DNA of 14,324 bases from a virus: positions 1-14,324 of the IMG/VR virus record IMGVR_UViG_3300045988_032442. The stretch is one strand, 5' to 3'. Position numbers and translations under genes: made by a program. The stretch's first letter is position 1, and each line of letters opens with the position of its first letter. The notes beneath the pieces were generated by a model. It was not told the DNA's origin and ran no database searches. It was given only the letters and a program-made list of their open reading frames with translations. Positions 4,068-13,849 of the stretch are shown piece by piece.

Positions 4068-4645
4068 AACAGACGACCTCCCTTCGCCATCTTAAACAGC
4101 AGCCATACCGGCAATTTGCCAGTAGGCCACGGCCCAGGGCCAGGGCCTGGCCCTGGGCCTGGCCCTGGGCCTGGCCCTGGGTCAGGGCCGGGGCCTGGGC
4201 CCGAGTCCCATTCAACGTCCCATGTGCCGACCTGATTCGGGATTCTGATAATGCTGGACGGGTCCCTCAGGTTTCCAGCGGCATCGGCGTACTCCCAATG
4301 CGTGTGAATGCCTGTTACGTAACCGGTCTGGCCCTGTGTGCCGATAAATTGCCCCTTAGAGATTGTGTCGCCCACGTTCCAAATTTGCGAGGCAAAGTGT
4401 GCGGCCCGCCATGTTGTGCCGTCGGCCATCCGTACCTTGATCATGTTTCCCCACGACTGATCGCCCGAGGTGCTGCCGTTCCAATGCTGGGCCGCGACCA
4501 CCACGCCCGCTTCGGGCGCATAGGCTTTATGGTTGCCGTGCACCGTGTCAATGCCCCGGTGGGGGCTGCCGTCAGAGTAAGCCGGGTAGCCCGCGGTGAC
4601 TCTGATCGGTGACACGTCAGTAATGCACTGTTTGTATACTGCCAT
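4064..4645 (-). CDS. M23-family (LytM-type) metallopeptidase, tail-associated peptidoglycan hydrolase candidate
   Basis: 193-aa ORF with GGAGGCGC upstream of the ATG at 4645. It carries HRGID (HxxxD) and GIHTHWE (HxH) zinc-ligand motifs. The C-terminus has a Gly-Pro linker and a short hydrophobic/basic tail. phi29 gp13 carries an M23 domain in its tail. Confidence 0.85.
   Translation of the reverse strand: MAVYKQCITDVSPIRVTAGYPAYSDGSPHRGIDTVHGNHKAYAPEAGVVVAAQHWNGSTSGDQSWGNMIKVRMADGTTWRAAHFASQIWNVGDTISKGQFIGTQGQTGYVTGIHTHWEYADAAGNLRDPSSIIRIPNQVGTWDVEWDSGPGPGPDPGPGPGPGPGPGPGPGPWPTGKLPVWLLFKMAKGGRLL
4129..4206 (-). repeat. GGCCCT/GGGCCT microsatellite encoding a (Gly-Pro) linker of about 12 units
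   Basis: Visible repeat ggcccagggccagggcctggccctgggcctggccctgggcctggccctgggtcagggccggggcctgggccc. It translates on the minus strand as SGPGPGPDPGPGPGPGPGPGPGPGPWP. Confidence 0.95.
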
Positions 4646-6073: not shown

Positions 6074-6085
6074 TTTGTGCCTCCT

Positions 6086-6117
6086 ACAAAATAACCGGAG
6101 GGCATAGGCCCTCCGGT
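6086..6117 (-). terminator. Intrinsic terminator / attenuator immediately after the major capsid gene
   Basis: Perfect 10-bp stem ACCGGAGGGC (6094-6103) and GCCCTCCGGT (6108-6117) with a 4-nt loop. On the minus strand it is followed by UAUUUUGU and sits 5 nt after the capsid gene stop. Confidence 0.7.
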
Positions 6118-6122
6118 GCAGG

Positions 6123-8004: not shown

Positions 8005-8163
8005 TTAACTCTCCTTCTTGATGTCGTCCAGAGCAAGTCGCATCTCGGTAATAGCCGCCGTGTTCTCCTTAACGACGGTGTTGCACTGATACCACATCAG
8101 CAGAAACGCTGCAATCGGAAATCCCACGTTAGAAATAGTCTGAATCACAGTATTAGCGTCCAT
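8005..8163 (-). CDS. Small membrane protein, YvrJ-family-like (holin candidate); below the ORF-track size cutoff
   Basis: Hand translation gives MDANTVIQTISNVGFPIAAFLLMWYQCNTVVKENTAAITEMRLALDDIKKES (52 aa). AAGGAGG lies 9 nt upstream of the ATG at 8161-8163, and the stop TAA at 8005-8007 lies 2 nt before the next start. ISNVGFPIA plus a hydrophobic helix and a charged helix matches my memory of the YvrJ family. Confidence 0.6.
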   Translation of the reverse strand: MDANTVIQTISNVGFPIAAFLLMWYQCNTVVKENTAAITEMRLALDDIKKES

Positions 8164-8177
8164 TTTGTGCACCTCCT

Positions 8178-8260
8178 TACAAATACAAGTAAATCCCCGG
8201 TTCTTGCGCTGGCTGACGCATGCCCACCCCTTCTGGGGGCTGCCTAGGGCGCCGGGGATT
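8178..8260 (-). promoter_or_regulatory. Structured RNA (putative three-way junction closed by a 9-bp stem) with a 3' U-rich tract, between the late promoter and the first late RBS
   Basis: On the minus-strand RNA, AAUCCCCGG (8260-8252) pairs with CCGGGGAUU (8200-8192). The enclosed 51 nt can form a CCCC/GGGG plus GCCC/GGGC hairpin and a short GCG/CGC hairpin. UUACUUGUAUUUGU follows the closing stem. The plus strand also has a T-run (ATTATTTTT) after the stem. Confidence 0.45.
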
Positions 8261-8266
8261 ATTTTT

Positions 8267-8295
8267 AGTATATACTACTCTTTAAAAAAAGTCAA
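8267..8295 (-). promoter_or_regulatory. Sigma-70/SigA-type promoter for the late (morphogenesis/lysis) block
   Basis: On the minus strand: TTGACT (8295-8290), a 17-nt spacer, then TATACT (8272-8267). The -35 element overlaps the ATPase stop codon. Confidence 0.55.
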
Positions 8296-9353
8296 GTACC
8301 GCAATACTCACGAAAGAAAATTTCATCCGAGTAACGCTCAAATTCAAGTTGCCGCTGCAAGTAAGCGGGCCAGATGTACCCATATGCGGCCCTGAATCGC
8401 TTTCGCTCATATTCGCCGGTGCCGTACATGGGCATATCACCCGACCGGTGCCGACACACATAGTACAGTGGTTTGCTTTTGTGCTCATAGATGCAACAGC
8501 GCCCAATCTGAACAAGCGGATAATATTCACGGAGCGGCCGAGACACCACTAGACTTTTCTCTTCGGCGCTGTATTGGTTTTCAATAGCAGACCTGTAAAA
8601 GTCGGTGCCGCTCATAGACCTATAGAGAGCTGTATCTGCTTTCTCTTTGGCTATGGGGCTGTCAACTAAATCGATCAATAGAACACCTTTATCTGCCAAC
8701 AGCTTGACGCGCTCTTTCTTGCCTATCATCTTCTCTACAATATCTGTAATCTCCCATTGCATATAATAGGGGTTGGCCATGCCGACGGCATTGGACATAC
8801 ATAACAACGTCAAGGGCTTTTTCCCTTGCAACTCGCGGTTACGGTTGACCGTTTCATAGATATTAGCAAGGCCCACGCCCTCCCCGCGCCGATAATAGTC
8901 CGACTCTTCTTTTTGGTACTCGTCCAAAATGATGATGTTAGTGTGGGGACTTGAAAAACCACGGGTTCGGGCCAGGGTGACGACGCTCCCCACAACTCCG
9001 GCCATCTGCGCAGGCTTAATGGGTGCCCCTGTATCAGTGTAGGCCCCTGCGTTGCCCACTTCATAGAGACCCGCAATTTTAGGCAATTTAAAAGGGGCGT
9101 AATGGGTTTGCAAATCATCATTCAACGGAGACCACGGCCACATACTGGGTGACGCGCAGATAAGTTCCGCTTGCTGCGGCGTGCGGCGCAGATACAAAAA
9201 TTCGTCCCCGGTCTGGTGGACGTGCTTTAGCGCTCCATAGGTCTTTCCGGTACCACGTCCGCCCCATATAAAAATGATCGGGGCCCCGGTTGACAAGATG
9301 CCATCCTTTTCGGAGAAATTAGGCCATCCATCATCTGTGTATAGTTTAATCAT
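8292..9353 (-). CDS. DNA encapsidation (packaging) ATPase, phi29 gp16-like
   Basis: The ATG at 9351-9353 overlaps the upstream stop (ATGATTAA); the ORF-track start at 9389 is a TTG without an RBS. Walker A is WGGRGTGKTYG and Walker B is IIILDEYQKEE. LCMSNAVGMANPYY resembles gp16 CLSNAVSVVNPYF, and FLYLRRT resembles FIYVRRY (phi29 sequences recalled from memory). Confidence 0.88.
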   Translation of the reverse strand: MIKLYTDDGWPNFSEKDGILSTGAPIIFIWGGRGTGKTYGALKHVHQTGDEFLYLRRTPQQAELICASPSMWPWSPLNDDLQTHYAPFKLPKIAGLYEVGNAGAYTDTGAPIKPAQMAGVVGSVVTLARTRGFSSPHTNIIILDEYQKEESDYYRRGEGVGLANIYETVNRNRELQGKKPLTLLCMSNAVGMANPYYMQWEITDIVEKMIGKKERVKLLADKGVLLIDLVDSPIAKEKADTALYRSMSGTDFYRSAIENQYSAEEKSLVVSRPLREYYPLVQIGRCCIYEHKSKPLYYVCRHRSGDMPMYGTGEYERKRFRAAYGYIWPAYLQRQLEFERYSDEIFFREYCGT

Positions 9354-10014
9354 ACAAACACCCCCACTGTTCGGCCATAGCTGCGGCAATACCTGAAAAC
9401 GTTTTGCTTCTTATTTTTGGGTCTCTTTCTTTTCTGCCTTGAAATTTTCTGTATTTTCCGTGCGCATCTTTGCAACCGCCATTTACATATGGTTCGTGCT
9501 TTTTAATAATTGCTGTTGGTTTAAGGGGACTAATGCCTTTCAACCACAAACAAGTTCGCTTACTGAATGGATGCCCGAATTGGTAAGGCTGTATTGCTTG
9601 TGTATATTCTGGCAATCCAATAATTTTCATTGGCGTCGGATTTTCAATAGCAATTCTACTACATTTTGCGTTATAAAATCGCATAAAAAACGCTTTAGCC
9701 TCCAGGGCTTTATTGTACCGCTCTTGCACTATCTGGCCCTTAACCCTCATCCGTACAGCACCGGCATTTGTCATGTACGTGCAGGGAGGAAACGCAATAA
9801 TCATATCCCATTCGCCAATTATTATATGTAACATGCCATCAATTGTAGTAAACGTACAATTTCCGTTAATCAGAGGCAAAACGTCCCCCAATATATGCCA
9901 TTCAGGACGCCCCCCGGATGGCTCTTTAATATCTGCACTATATGCTTCATGCCCACGTTCCCGGAACGCTTTACACACAGTCTGTGATTCTTCGCAAGCT
10001 ACTAAAACTTTCAT
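9346..10014 (-). CDS. DNA cytosine-C5-methyltransferase-like protein (tentative)
   Basis: 222-aa ORF whose ATG lies 1 nt after the polymerase stop, with GGAGG 9 nt upstream. AFPPCTY (Pro-Cys, motif IV-like) and IAIENP (ENV-like motif VI) are present. The N-terminus MKVLVACEESQ...GHEAYS.D resembles a phage family often annotated as a cytosine methylase. There is no canonical FxGxG motif. Confidence 0.5.
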   Translation of the reverse strand: MKVLVACEESQTVCKAFRERGHEAYSADIKEPSGGRPEWHILGDVLPLINGNCTFTTIDGMLHIIIGEWDMIIAFPPCTYMTNAGAVRMRVKGQIVQERYNKALEAKAFFMRFYNAKCSRIAIENPTPMKIIGLPEYTQAIQPYQFGHPFSKRTCLWLKGISPLKPTAIIKKHEPYVNGGCKDAHGKYRKFQGRKERDPKIRSKTFSGIAAAMAEQWGCLYD

Positions 10015-12843: not shown

Positions 12844-12850
12844 GGGGCCT

Positions 12851-12887
12851 CCTATAATAAATAAGGCCGCCGCATTGCGGCGGCCTT
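12851..12887 (-). terminator. Perfect 11-bp GC-rich hairpin with a modest U-tract (partial terminator or mRNA-stabilising hairpin) after the SSB-like gene
   Basis: AAGGCCGCCGC (12863-12873), loop ATT, GCGGCGGCCTT (12877-12887). On the minus strand it is followed by AUUUAUUAUAGG, which runs into the next RBS. Confidence 0.55.
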
Positions 12888-12895
12888 TGGTTAGA

Positions 12896-13330
12896 TTAAA
12901 CCAGATTCAAAGACAAAACCTGCCCTTTTTTGGTGCTGATAAGAACAGGTTTGATTTTCACCGGCTCCGTCCACGTGTCAGGGGTCCCTAGCAGCGTAAA
13001 CATACGCTTCAAAGACTGATACACGCCGACGGAGACGCAGGCGTACGACTGCCCGTCATCGGTAATGAGGACGACACGCGGGGCAATCGTTTTGCCCTCG
13101 GGAACGTCGTCCTTGCTGACCTCCACACACTCCACGGAGACATGAACCAGCGACAGAACCTCGTTGACGTGCTCCTTAAGCTTGTTGGCGGGGTTGCTGG
13201 TCGCGTTGTAGAAGGCAACCGCGACAGCACGGTCAGAAAGATTCATGTCGGTGTACCCGACCCCGGTGTTCATCACGTCGGACACCATCATAGCACCAGT
13301 GTTTTCGGACTTCATCATTGCTTCGGACAT
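12896..13330 (-). CDS. Single-stranded DNA-binding protein candidate (phi29 gene 5 position)
   Basis: 144-aa ORF with AAGGAG 9 nt upstream of the ATG at 13330. The sequence is beta-rich (VSVECVEV..., RVVLITDDGQSYACVSVGVYQSL, PVKIKPVLISTKKGQVLSLNLV), compatible with an OB-like fold. Its position is upstream of the TP/pol genes. The assignment rests on synteny and composition only. Confidence 0.35.
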   Translation of the reverse strand: MSEAMMKSENTGAMMVSDVMNTGVGYTDMNLSDRAVAVAFYNATSNPANKLKEHVNEVLSLVHVSVECVEVSKDDVPEGKTIAPRVVLITDDGQSYACVSVGVYQSLKRMFTLLGTPDTWTEPVKIKPVLISTKKGQVLSLNLV

Positions 13331-13353
13331 AATACAAAACTCCTTTCAATATG

Positions 13354-13408
13354 TGCCCTGTCTCATCAGTACCGGGCGGGCAGTCCCGGTAGACGGCCCG
13401 GAGGCCGT
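13354..13408 (-). promoter_or_regulatory. Two adjacent GC-rich hairpins in the leader of the SSB-like gene, with possible loop-to-downstream pairing
   Basis: H1 is ACGGCC/GGCCGT (13393-13408). H2 is TACCGGG/CCCGGTA (13370-13391). The H2 loop UGCCC is complementary to GGGCA at 13354-13358. There is no U-tract on the minus strand, but the plus strand has TTCGACTTTTATTTTT (13409-13424) after H1. Confidence 0.4.
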
Positions 13409-13416
13409 TTCGACTT

Positions 13417-13683
13417 TTATTTTTGGAGATACTCACGGTAGCAGGATTCAACCGCATCGCGGACCTTGGCAGCACTCTGGTACATGAGCTGGGACGACAG
13501 GCAGGTGTTCTTGTTTGCCTCCAGGGTTCTCACTTGCTCATTGCAATGTATGAGAGCTTGCTTGAATCCGGCCAACCATGCACGATCATTGGAGGTCCTG
13601 TATCTGTCGTCGGGCTCCTCATATTCGCAACAAATCAGCGTGCCATCGGGGCGTACCTCGATGATGAATTTACGCATCTCCAT
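13417..13683 (-). CDS. Hypothetical 88-aa protein (phi29 gene 6 position); start revised from the ORF track
   Basis: GAAAGGAG (13700-13693) lies 9 nt upstream of the ATG at 13681-13683 (MEMRKFIIEV...). The ORF-track start at 13761 has no RBS and would run through the better-supported 59-aa ORF. Confidence 0.55.
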   Translation of the reverse strand: MEMRKFIIEVRPDGTLICCEYEEPDDRYRTSNDRAWLAGFKQALIHCNEQVRTLEANKNTCLSSQLMYQSAAKVRDAVESCYREYLQK

Positions 13684-13849
13684 CTTCCTGGGCTCCTTTC
13701 TGCCAACCAAACATGACCTTCGCAAGACTGACAATGACCTTGATACTGTCGATAATATCATTCTCGGTCAGTTCTTGCAGGTTCTTACCATCAAAAGTAA
13801 TGTTATCATCGGTTATAGTGATTATAATCTTAATTTCGTTACTTGTCAT
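13670..13849 (-). CDS. Hypothetical 59-aa protein, not in the ORF track (below cutoff)
   Basis: Hand translation gives MTSNEIKIIITITDDNITFDGKNLQELTENDIIDSIKVIVSLAKVMFGWQKGAQEDGDA. GGAGG lies 6 nt upstream of the ATG at 13847-13849. It overlaps the upstream stop by 11 nt and the downstream start by 14 nt. Confidence 0.5.
   Translation of the reverse strand: MTSNEIKIIITITDDNITFDGKNLQELTENDIIDSIKVIVSLAKVMFGWQKGAQEDGDA

Follow-up and report, generated by a model that had tools for sequence, protein, structure and literature searches.

A conserved 69-nt three-way-junction RNA beside the packaging ATPase gene of a small phi29-like gut phage, a possible miniature counterpart of the packaging RNA

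The stretch of DNA analysed here over its whole length of 14,324 nt (the window) comes from a small gut phage that is genuinely phi29-like, with a gene set comprising a gp16-family ATPase, a connector of the phi29 gp10 type (PF05352), a phi29 SSB and a polymerase B of the protein-primed type; a Phi29_MCP-type capsid protein is present in its relatives. The element under study lies on the minus strand in the 128-nt gap between the DNA-packaging ATPase gene and the next ATG (8163), which in genomes of the window type is the boundary between early and late genes. An earlier note on this DNA had singled out this gap as the largest non-coding one in the interior of the genome, in agreement with the list of open reading frames, where the remaining interior gaps are smaller (~86 nt at 13331-13416, 52 nt at 12844-12895 and 49 nt at 6074-6122). 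The features of the locus are collected in Table 1. The product of the first late gene gives a weak PF12841 match in one relative (L210). Elsewhere in the window, at 13415-13352, there is a type II hammerhead ribozyme.

Table 1. Features of the element and of its flanking genes, with positions as numbered in the window.
Feature	Position	Strand	Remarks
gp16-family DNA packaging ATPase gene	8292..9389	(-)	directly upstream of the element; phrog_2150 (terminase phrog), PF05894, PDB 7JQQ E = 8e-11
-35 hexamer TTGACT	8290..8295	(-)	contains the ATPase stop codon TGA (8294-8292); TTGAC(A/T) kept in 37/39 lineages
-10 hexamer TATACT	8267..8272	(-)	17-nt spacer behind the -35 hexamer
Predicted transcription start	8260..8261	(-)	6-7 nt past the -10 hexamer; would be the first nucleotide of helix A
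Helix A, 5' strand AAUCCCCGG	8252..8260	(-)	RNAfold; compensatory changes in 7/7 modelled pairs
Helix C, 5' strand GCCC	8247..8250	(-)	helix C 100% paired; 3/4 pairs compensatory
5'-side bulge UAGGCA	8241..8246	(-)	GGC (8244-8242) complementary to GCC of the D loop; counterpart of the pRNA CE loop
Hairpin E GCCCC-CAGAA-GGGGU	8226..8240	(-)	loop consensus CNGAA
Helix C, 3' strand GGGC	8222..8225	(-)	RNAfold and alignment
Hairpin D UGCGU-CAGCCA-GCGCA	8205..8220	(-)	loop GCC (8213-8211) pairs with GGC of the bulge; counterpart of the pRNA D loop
Junction strand AGAA between D and A	8201..8204	(-)	conserved core GA(A)
Helix A, 3' strand CCGGGGAUU	8192..8200	(-)	RNAfold and alignment
U-rich tail UACUUGUAUUUGU	8179..8191	(-)	putative weak or leaky terminator tract; has the recurrent UUGUAU motif
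SD AAGGAGG (8178-8172) and first late gene (ATG 8163)	8005..8178	(-)	phrog_4898; YvrJ/holin-like small membrane protein

The anatomy that the earlier note had read from the letters, with a promoter, a closing stem, a three-way junction, a U-rich tail and the first late RBS in succession, proved correct. Every coordinate of the promoter TTGACT-17-TATACT (8295-8267, minus strand), which agrees with the consensus at 10 of 12 positions, was confirmed in the gap after the ATPase gene. In relatives the -10 hexamer reads TATAAT, TATATT or TATTAT, the sequence of the spacer is free to vary, and a sigma-A promoter scoring at least 10/12 is kept in 37 of 39 distinct lineages. The start of transcription had been predicted at the base of the closing stem, a position that fits the median distance of 6 nt between the -10 hexamer and the beginning of helix A over the 39 lineages. 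With such a promoter in nearly all lineages and a predicted +1 at the base of the helix, the element looks like an independent transcription unit. As for the fold, RNAfold gives for 8260-8192 the 69-nt three-way junction already described, in which a 9-bp closing stem (AAUCCCCGG/CCGGGGAUU) encloses two hairpins, with a free energy of -33.8 kcal/mol. Taken alone, the promoter and the fold of the window are weak evidence, because the z-score of the fold is just -2.2, with 4 of 200 shuffles folding equally well, and because a promoter scan of the window returns 31 promoter-like sites against 17.6 expected.

The comparative data lift the element far above chance. Relatives were gathered by searching for contigs that encode the proteins and by an alignment-based scan of metagenomes, and the element is common to every adequately covered one of them, that is, to ~300 contigs from gut and rumen, whose ATPases may be as little as ~28% identical, as well as to the cultured phages Amedibacillus AD70P3, Clostridium CI461P1 and Eggerthella LE1-1. 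It was found at 291 of the 295 loci that include the end of the ATPase gene, the four exceptions being a contig that ends 25 nt past this gene, a locus missed by the parser where the covariance model recovered the element, and two genomes that have it elsewhere. Locus searches with single proteins (P0009, P0036) returned nothing or just close relatives, and a degenerate DNA pattern for relatives not of the window type gave in IMG/VR chance matches only, in large unrelated contigs. The leader of Streptococcus phage Cp-1, from PL1 to the first late gene, shows no three-way junction.

Covariation in related genomes, which the earlier note had named as a check, was found. In an alignment of 68 distinct sequences (A5), 98% of the cells are paired and 17 of the 19 nested pairs have changed on both sides; none of 500 shuffles reached the observed pairing, and controls in which the 3' partner was slid by 1-3 columns had 15-59% of cells paired. 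In a further alignment (A4), compensatory changes occur in 18 of 24 pairs. A clean 14-sequence seed and a covariance model (R1) were used because a MAFFT alignment of all the diverse elements mis-registered hairpin E and the loops. The RNAs of CI461P1 and CI55P1 are nearly identical, so this pair yields no covariation. The R1 model finds one strong match per genome, that of the window having 40.5 bits and E = 1.5e-11; a second match in the window at 4121-4178 (17.7 bits) was judged spurious because it lies in a GC-rich repetitive coding stretch. The near-invariant unpaired parts are the CNGAA loop, the ...GCA of the bulge and the GA joiner, and the lengths of C, E and D are fixed. Helix A is a short perfect duplex that varies among lineages, as parsed, from 6 to 16 bp, and the junction strands measure 0-1, 1-2 and 3-5 nt. 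The element is best read as a small RNA gene of a previously undescribed and widely conserved family, found in small phi29-like phages of anaerobic Firmicutes and Actinobacteria.

Besides the nested helices, a fifth helix is formed by the 5'-side bulge of the first arm and the loop of the second, and it also covaries. There are 18 types of pairing between the bulge and the D loop, such as GGC:GCC, GAGC:GCUC, GUGC:GCAC, UAGCA:UGCUA, GGUCA:UGACC and AAGGG:CCCUU, and distant relatives have AAUCA:UGAUU, GUCG:CGAC and an 8-bp AAAAGGAA:UUCCUUUU; on the bulge side, the pairing takes up the 3'-terminal 3-8 nt. The mean duplex score of bulges with their own loops is 4.11, against 2.72 +/- 0.17 when these are permuted, with the observed value reached in 0 of 100,000 permutations, and compensatory changes are seen in 3 of the 5 pairs of this helix in alignment A4. 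Identical covariation would be expected from an intramolecular pseudoknot, pairing in cis and in trans being inseparable by covariation. The lengths of the junction strands would suggest, by the rule of thumb of Lescoute and Westhof, that hairpin D points away from the bulge.

The U-rich tract described in the earlier note behind the closing stem is indeed present, but in the window it is only moderately rich, with 4 U in 8 nt. A run of at least 4 U follows helix A in 46% of the lineages and one of at least 3 U in 74%, so that about a quarter to half of them have no convincing U-tract; where it is weak or absent, a discrete RNA would therefore need processing. Moreover, the element falls outside the canonical definition of an intrinsic terminator, a short-looped, GC-rich hairpin running straight into a stretch of U, as it is absent from the terminator scan and its stem holds a 51-nt structured insert. 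An early-operon terminator with an overlapping late promoter, the simplest of the three readings offered earlier, was rejected as a sufficient explanation because the invariant loops, the covarying tertiary helix and the lineages devoid of a U-tract go unexplained. A related proposal is that of a purely mechanical boundary, in which helix A and the U-tract would end early transcripts of the ATPase gene while the same helix, in the manner of the 5' stabiliser stem-loops of Firmicutes, would shield the late mRNA from decay that depends on its 5' end, the inner hairpins having no specific function. This would fit with helix A beginning at the predicted +1, with the short U runs of most lineages and with the position at the early/late boundary in the window type. 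Nevertheless, it has to be regarded as very improbable: it accounts neither for the near-invariant loops and the fixed lengths of C, E and D, nor for a fifth helix that covaries down to ~28% ATPase identity, several lineages have no U-tract at all, and ordinary hairpin terminators serve elsewhere in the same genomes, at 12887-12863 and, as a strong one behind the capsid gene, at 6117-6094 in the window, and also in two relatives (L206 and L318).

A different line of evidence comes from the comparison with the packaging RNA (pRNA) of phi29. According to reviews up to 2024, pRNAs occur solely in phi29 and its relatives among Bacillus phages (PMC5066667, PMC11476376). They have only ~12% sequence similarity with a conserved structure, and their CE and D loops pair intermolecularly (PMC5066667). 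The element resembles them in being carried by phages with a gp16-family ATPase, a gp10-type connector and a protein-primed polymerase B, in having its own strong promoter with a +1 (predicted here) at the start of the helix that closes the 5' and 3' ends, and in showing little conservation of sequence and strong conservation of structure. The order of strands in R1 is identical to that of the RF00044 consensus (A, C, 5'-side bulge, E hairpin, C', D hairpin, A'). In both cases the 5'-side bulge measures 6-10 nt and borders on an E hairpin of 4-5 bp. The nucleotides that pair are its 3'-most ones, next to this hairpin, and they form 3-8 covarying base pairs with the D loop, a pairing that is intermolecular in pRNA.

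As already indicated by the earlier note, the window RNA is, with its 69 nt, much shorter than the 117-174 nt of pRNAs. Its helix C has 4 bp instead of 9 and its D 4-5 bp instead of 6, helix A is a 9-bp perfect duplex whereas that of phi29 comprises ~25 bp with bulges, and the gp16-binding CCA bulge has no counterpart. The long unpaired junction strand is located between D and A in the element and between C and D in phi29, and the pRNA gene sits at the genome end, whereas the element heads an operon (the late one in the window) or adjoins the ATPase gene. Larger relatives of the LE1-1 type bridge the size gap: the LE1-1 RNA has a C of 10 bp, an E of 4 bp with a 6-nt loop, a D of 6 bp and junction strands of 3, 1 and 0 nt, compared with 9 bp, 4 bp with a 6-nt loop, 6 bp and strands of 1, 3 and 0 nt in phi29. 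Relatives whose ATPase is 66% identical show covariation in both this fold and its kissing pair (GGGC:GCCC replaced by GUGCA:UGCAC), and LE1-1 and the mini form share a signature of '...GCA' in the bulge and '(U)GC' in the loop. A pRNA-topology descriptor based on RNALfold recovers phi29 pRNA, LE1-1 and L315 and was used for dimensions only; it misses the window element, which Lfold merges into other local folds.

A scan with the Rfam pRNA covariance model, another check named in the earlier note, did not match the element. RF00044 gave no hit at its gathering score, at E <= 5 in the whole window or at E <= 10 in the region, nor at E <= 10 in the corresponding regions of LE1-1 and CI461P1, the positive control with phi29 reaching 145 bits; conversely, R1 does not match phi29. 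That neither a RF00044 pRNA nor any other candidate RNA turned up anywhere in the window at E <= 5 counts in favour of the element as a pRNA analogue. The gp10 connector of phi29 has an RKR-like basic patch at its N-terminus, and inspection of the N-terminus of the window connector found no such basic, RNA-binding patch, which is weak negative evidence. Altogether, among the readings of the earlier note that of a pRNA analogue is the best supported, by the helix order, the covarying bulge-loop pairing and the dimensions of LE1-1, although it lacks an Rfam match and adjacency to the ATPase gene is not universal.

In this regard, the element adjoins the ATPase gene in four of the five types of genome arrangement. 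It lies directly downstream in the window type, directly upstream in CI461P1, and as a divergent neighbour in L311. In LE1-1 it is again upstream but separated from the gene by one small ORF, and the capsid operon of this phage is devoid of such an RNA. In L315/L316 and MT835998 it is found 3.7 and 8.3 kb away, still leading the late operon, which is inverted there. The element and its promoter stay together in the rearranged genomes and always head an operon, as would be expected of a leader acting in cis. The argument from adjacency to gp16 is thus weakened, since some genomes keep the element 3.7-8 kb from the ATPase gene.

These rearrangements bear on the main rival of the packaging-RNA reading, a leader acting in cis on the late operon, that of lysis and morphogenesis, in which the three-way junction with an intramolecular bulge-loop pseudoknot would control elongation on the nascent transcript. 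It might do so by direct modification of RNA polymerase, like the put RNA of HK022, or by binding a phage protein that decides on read-through of helix A with its U-tract and of later terminators (N/nut-like or lambda PR'-tR'-like), and late genes would be expressed only after anti-termination. In three rearranged genomes, of two arrangement types, the element has moved with the late promoter and the YvrJ/holin-like gene and not with the ATPase gene, and it is always placed directly behind a consensus promoter and before a polycistronic operon, with no second promoter between it and the first late RBS. Terminator-like structures on which a leader could act are the strong hairpin behind the capsid gene of the window and, in L315, a second terminator-like hairpin between the element, with its U6 tail, and the holin RBS. 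The putL and putR RNAs of HK022 are likewise ~70 nt long and two-armed, with arms that touch each other, and they act where a long operon with terminators begins, immediately behind its promoter (PMC9378689). The element fits them in size and in its position just past the promoter, and terminator-like hairpins lie downstream of it. However, put RNAs, which work in cis on the beta' zinc-binding domain of RNA polymerase with no protein factors and occur in lambdoid phages of E. coli, have no closing helix, no U-tract or terminator of their own and no Watson-Crick bulge-loop helix, whereas the element has a closing helix and often a U-tract; put is apparently absent from Rfam and bears no sequence or covariance-model relationship to the element.

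Further points speak against a leader. The genes downstream change with the arrangement, the ATPase remaining outside in the window type and capsid and portal in LE1-1, where the capsid operon has no leader of this kind; no common regulated target exists; helix A, as a long perfect duplex, should form regardless of any effector, unlike a switch; and the exact match with pRNA in helix order and bulge-loop pairing would be a coincidence. A cis-acting leader is considered rather unlikely, though it is the foremost competitor. In lambda, the constitutive late promoter PR' is followed within ~70-200 nt by the terminator tR', and a short abortive transcript (6S RNA) results unless it is read through. 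Many lineages show a similar arrangement of promoter and terminator-like structure, but at least a third of them have no clear U-tract, the 6S RNA of lambda is not known to have a function or a complex fold that is conserved, and Q works via DNA and sigma, not RNA. The PR'-tR'-like arrangement proposed in the earlier note remains a live rival in the modified form of a leader acting in cis.

A trans-acting RNA with another role, such as that of a decoy, of a sponge for proteins, of an anti-defence RNA or of a new RNA with self-cleaving or other catalytic activity, would agree with a compact, pseudoknotted molecule with few invariant unpaired nucleotides, in a phage that already has a hammerhead ribozyme. 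Such a role appears improbable: anti-defence cargo is normally variable and patchy, whereas no adequately covered genome of this deep clade lacks the element, there is no evident cleavage-site signature, and none of the ribozyme and sRNA families of Rfam matches at E <= 10. Scans of the window and the region with Rfam 15, at gathering and permissive scores, returned the unrelated hammerhead and chance-level matches only (GNAS-AS1 at E = 0.35, SpR10 at E = 1.7), those of the LE1-1 and CI461P1 regions gave no pRNA, riboswitch or ribozyme family, and ARAGORN found no tRNA-like gene. A riboswitch was rejected in view of the long perfect duplex that closes the element, and a translational switch, in which the 5' strand of helix A would pair as an anti-SD with the RBS, because the sequence of helix A is unconstrained across lineages.

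The chances appear evenly balanced that the element is a miniature counterpart of the packaging RNA, produced from a strong promoter and a leaky closing-helix terminator. According to this packaging-RNA reading, a host sigma-A-type promoter would start the transcript at the first nucleotide of helix A, and the RNA would fold in the order A 5', C 5', 5'-side bulge, hairpin E, C 3', hairpin D, GA-rich joiner and A 3'. Closure of helix A, with the U-rich tract behind it, would work as a leaky terminator, so that a single strong promoter would supply two products, a plentiful discrete RNA of ~70-80 nt whose ends are paired and an mRNA reading through into the genes downstream. The 3'-terminal 3-8 nt of the bulge would pair with the D loop, most likely between molecules as in phi29 pRNA, and the RNA would self-assemble on the prohead/connector to serve the gp16-type packaging ATPase. 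Of all this, the promoter, the fold with its five helices, their conservation and the genomic contexts are observed, whereas the start and end of the transcript, pairing in trans and a part in packaging are inferred.

Under either reading, in cis or as a packaging RNA, the RNA family is absent from Rfam. If it acted in cis, it would represent a new and also undescribed class of late-operon leader RNA in phages of Gram-positive hosts. As for the packaging-RNA reading, it is testable at once because three cultured phage-host pairs have the element. It may well be that RNA-dependent DNA packaging is not peculiar to the phi29-like phages of Bacillus, and that small phi29-like phages of the human and animal gut, which form a large, abundant clade including cultured Guelinviridae and related phages of Amedibacillus, Clostridium and Eggerthella, have a pRNA of their own, mostly miniaturised, as in the window, to a 65-85-nt three-way junction that still self-assembles by kissing of bulge and loop. 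In that case, this would be the smallest natural packaging-motor RNA. To our knowledge, pRNA is the only RNA that a viral DNA-packaging motor requires as one of its components, and RNA nanotechnology has made it a workhorse. A second and far more diverse family with the same topology would tell whether RNA is ancestral to gp16-type motors, its natural minimal version (~65 nt) would reveal which parts of pRNA are dispensable, and designers would gain kissing-loop pairs by the dozen, orthogonal to one another, along with compact three-way junctions.

The window is the genome of a small phi29-like podovirus from the human gut (14.3 kb, complete or near-complete); the record MT836263, which is unannotated, shares 86% identity with it. 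All its genes lie on the minus strand and comprise a phi29-type SSB, polymerase B, a DNA methyltransferase, a gp16-family packaging ATPase (E = 8e-11 against phi29 gp16, PDB 7JQQ; Pfam PF05894 also present), a holin/YvrJ-like small protein, the major capsid protein, an M23 peptidase, a gp10-type connector and a tail spike. The methyltransferase gene (phrog_757) is found between the polymerase and ATPase genes, overlapping the start of the latter; in three relatives (contigs L207, L210 and L230) polymerase and ATPase genes abut directly, which makes the methyltransferase look like an insertion peculiar to the window's sub-clade. An 86-nt gap between an early ORF and the SSB gene holds a hammerhead ribozyme of type II (RF02276; 48.5 bits, E = 1.5e-7); 5 of the 7 window-type full-length contigs searched keep it, and a search of more distant relatives did not find it. 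The genome also has two strong terminator-like hairpins of canonical form, one before the SSB gene in the early region and one right after the major capsid gene (ACCGGAGGGC…GCCCUCCGGU UAUUUUGUAG), so placed that the genes 3' of the latter need read-through or an internal promoter. Inside the peptidase gene, a GC-rich, imperfectly repetitive stretch (GGCCCAGGGC…GGCCCUGGCCCUGGGCC) gave weak matches to several Rfam models (sX13, 32.5 bits, E = 0.005; several miRNA models) and to our covariance model of the element (17.7 bits), and probably encodes a Gly/Pro-rich linker rather than an RNA element.

Coordinates of the element, of neighbouring features in the window and of related features in other contigs
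Feature	Contig	Coordinates	Strand
GC-rich stretch in peptidase gene	window	4096-4212	
Hairpin after major capsid gene	window	6094-6117	-
Motif before first late RBS	window	8181-8188	
Helix A, 3' strand	window	8200-8192	-
Three-way-junction RNA	window	8260-8192	-
-10 hexamer	window	8272-8267	-
-35 hexamer	window	8295-8290	-
Packaging ATPase gene	window	8292-9389	-
Methyltransferase gene	window	9346-10014	-
Hairpin before SSB gene	window	12863-12887	-
SSB gene	window	12896-13330	-
Hammerhead ribozyme	window	13352-13415	-
Early ORF	window	13417-13761	-
Element, first copy	L089	165-203	+
Element, second copy	L089	8160-8198	-
Four-way-junction variant	L311	1043-1120	-
Second terminator-like hairpin	L315	6105-6215	-
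Locus listed with the L315 hairpin	L206	3560-3600	
Hairpin 3' of large RNA	L324	12640-12700	

All the features of the element described in an earlier note were confirmed at their positions, among them the promoter TTGACT-17 nt-TATACT, whose -35 hexamer holds the stop TGA of the ATPase gene. The segment AAUCCCCGG begins 6 nt past the -10 hexamer and, with its complement CCGGGGAUU, encloses two hairpins; the three-way junction that had been claimed is the minimum-free-energy fold of the 69-nt RNA (-33.8 kcal/mol). From the window sequence alone the case for the element would be weak, since the z-score of this fold is -2.2 and promoter-like sites occur throughout the window at about twice the shuffled rate.

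Comparison with relatives raised the element far above chance. An ATPase protein query retrieved 179 IMG/VR relatives, and the element was present in all 80 that were fetched. Further relatives came from a protein search for encoding contigs and an alignment-based metagenome scan (ATPase identity from 77% down to ~33%), and a descriptor search located the element in 291 of 295 loci containing the ATPase gene end, the exceptions being a contig that ends 25 nt past the gene, a parser miss that the covariance model does find, and two rearranged genomes. A clean alignment of 14 sequences had 95.8% of cells paired and both-side changes in 18 of 24 pairs, against 30-40% pairing when the 3' partners were slid. 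The covariance model derived from it gave exactly one strong match per genome (window, 40.5 bits, E = 1.5e-11), and the resulting 68-sequence alignment, with 98% of cells paired and compensatory changes in 17 of 19 pairs, supplied the covariation that the earlier note had proposed to look for. The closing helix A is free in sequence and variable in length (6-16 bp as parsed), and the inner parts are fixed in size: helix C of 4-5 bp, its hairpin E of 3-5 bp with a CNGAA loop, and the second hairpin D of 4-5 bp, with loops near-invariant inside sub-clades. Two copies on opposite strands were observed in L089 (IMGVR_UViG_3300045988_033841), which at 18 kb exceeds the genome length and so is probably a head-to-head assembly artefact or concatemer. 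Another contig, L311, carries a variant with an extra GNRA hairpin (CGG-GAAA-CCG) in the A-C strand, forming a four-way junction, and its promoter stands back-to-back with that of the ATPase gene.

A fifth helix was revealed by the same comparison. In every lineage the bulge on the 5' side between C and E is complementary, in its 3' part, to the loop of hairpin D, and the two partners co-vary: GGC:GCC in the window, and elsewhere AGGC:GCCU, GAGC:GCUC, GUGC:GCAC, UAGCA:UGCUA, GGGCA:UGCCC, GGUCA:UGACC, GCACA:UGUGC and AAGGG:CCCUU, with AAUCA:UGAUU, GUCG:CGAC and the 8-bp AAAAGGAA:UUCCUUUU in more distant relatives. When partners were permuted among one representative of each of 18 pairing types, the mean duplex score of the own bulge and loop (4.11) was reached in none of 100,000 permutations (2.72 +/- 0.17), and other single-stranded segments of the same molecules scored ~1.4-1.8. 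In the 14-sequence alignment this helix is 92.9% paired, with compensatory changes in 3 of 5 pairs. The junction strands measure 0-1, 1-2 and 3-5 nt, lengths that on the Lescoute-Westhof rule of thumb would incline hairpin D to the helix A side, away from the bulge, which would favour pairing in trans.

The promoter is conserved as well: 37 of 39 distinct lineages match TTGACA-16/18-TATAAT at 10 or more of 12 positions, with a freely variable spacer sequence and a median of 6 nt from the end of the -10 hexamer to the first nucleotide of helix A, at whose base the RNA therefore probably begins. The ATPase stop lies within TTGAC(A/T) in several lineages (the window, L207, L210, L230), and in an AT-rich sub-clade the hexamer falls within the final ATPase codons (…TTTGACAAATATTTC…); gene end and promoter are thus co-constrained. 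On the 3' side, at least 4 U follow helix A in 46% of lineages and at least 3 U in 74%, the tails being strong in some (UUUUGUAUAU, AUUUUUUGAG) and absent in others, and thus the closing helix looks terminator-like in many lineages, not all; a simple terminator scan of the window did not report it. The suggestion that the element is simply the early-operon terminator with an overlapping promoter fails, as it leaves unexplained the conserved core, the fifth helix and the lineages lacking a U-tract, and a purely mechanical role as terminator or stabiliser is very improbable. Between helix A and the first late RBS there is also a short conserved motif: UUGUAU(A/U/C)U in window-type genomes, in L207 and L230 and in MT835998 (L322 is listed with these), the perfect palindrome TTGTATACAA in the AT-rich sub-clade (L233, L290, L293, L295, L297 and L298 are listed), where GTATACA often comes next, and TTTGTGCACAAA in L285. 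This motif could belong to the terminator, serve as a processing site or be an operator bound by a dimeric regulator.

The analogy with phi29 pRNA also raised in the earlier note held for the architecture and not for the sequence model. The Rfam model RF00044, which scores phi29's own pRNA at 145 bits, matched neither the window nor its relatives, whatever threshold was set, nor did our model match phi29; by model the element is therefore no member of RF00044, and the resemblance is architectural. Reports of pRNA are confined to phi29 and related phages of Bacillus; sequence similarity among the known pRNAs is only ~12%, yet their secondary structure is conserved, and the ring on the prohead forms by intermolecular pairing of CE with D loops (PMC5066667, PMC11476376). 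In the RF00044 consensus the 5' strand of A is followed by a 9-bp C, a 5'-side bulge of 9 nt, a 4-bp E with a loop of 6 nt, the 3' strand of C, UUU, a 6-bp D with a loop of 5 nt and the 3' strand of A. The consensus of our model has the identical strand order, and in both RNAs the nucleotides pairing with the D loop stand at the 3' end of the bulge beside helix E.

Related elements were found in three cultured phages, each behind a sigma-A-like promoter: a mini form after the packaging gene of Amedibacillus phage AD70P3 (Guelinviridae; pairing UAUCC:GGAUA), a ~105-nt form in Clostridium phage CI461P1 (pairing ACCA:UGGU), whose helix A is long and bulged and whose U-tract is strong, and a ~103-nt form in Eggerthella phage LE1-1. 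A generic topology parser gave LE1-1 and phi29 pRNA equal values for E (4, loop 6) and D (6), and respectively 10 and 9 for C and 3/1/0 and 1/3/0 for the junction strands. LE1-1 relatives with 66% ATPase identity keep the fold by compensatory changes, the kissing pair passing from GGGC:GCCC to GUGCA:UGCAC. A '...GCA' bulge end and a '(U)GC' loop are common to large and mini forms, so on this sequence signature we regard them as one family. In L324 and its relatives L326-L360 a second hairpin is conserved about 10 nt 3' of the LE1-1-type large RNA; its stems covary (GCCGCCCUCC/GGAGGGCGGC, AGCCCCUGUC/GGCAGGGGCU, GGCGCACC/GGUGCGCC), its loop is conserved (GCUU…AUGAUGG), and the layout is reminiscent of the two-domain 174-nt phi29 pRNA.

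Five genomic arrangements were seen, in all of which the RNA keeps its own promoter and occupies an operon head. In the window and most relatives it lies between ATPase and late genes; in CI461P1, between polymerase and ATPase, with the late genes following; in LE1-1, between lysozyme and a small ORF preceding the encapsidation ATPase, the capsid operon after the polymerase gene being without such RNA; and in L311 it directly adjoins the ATPase gene, divergently. In the fifth the late module is inverted, a plain hairpin follows the ATPase gene, and the RNA, at the head of the late operon, is 3.7 kb (L315/L316) or 8.3 kb (MT835998) away from that gene. The ATPase gene is a neighbour of the RNA in 4 of the 5, and the genes downstream have no constant member. 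L315 belongs to the rearranged P0007 lineage; its RNA is separated from the holin RBS by a second terminator-like hairpin (CCCGGGCCCUCGUGACCCGGG CAAUUCUUUU), which resembles the one after the ATPase gene of the same genome (…GGGCCUGGG CAAUCUUUGG) and may be either a second terminator under regulation or a trace left by the inversion.

Two readings remain. A leader acting in cis on the operon would explain the constant place behind a promoter at the operon head, the tandem terminator-like hairpins of L315 and, in inverted genomes, the joint movement of RNA and late promoter. It is the less probable of the two and rather unlikely; under it the pRNA match must be a coincidence, and a variable set of regulated genes must be accepted. 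Other trans-acting roles are improbable. A pRNA-like function, to which we give an even chance, would account for the phage family, for no other pRNA having been found, for the recurrent ATPase neighbourhood, for an RNA that is transcribed as a unit of its own and has its 5' and 3' ends paired, for the exact topology including the self-complementary bulge and loop, and for large forms of pRNA dimensions. The pRNA-like and leader roles are compatible, since a leaky terminator would yield both the small RNA and the late mRNA from one unit. No Rfam family was found for the element, and a literature search found no description of it or of a pRNA-like RNA outside Bacillus phages. The element constitutes a new family of RNAs, which most probably are packaging RNAs of a new, miniaturised variant, and direct tests are possible in three cultured phage-host systems.
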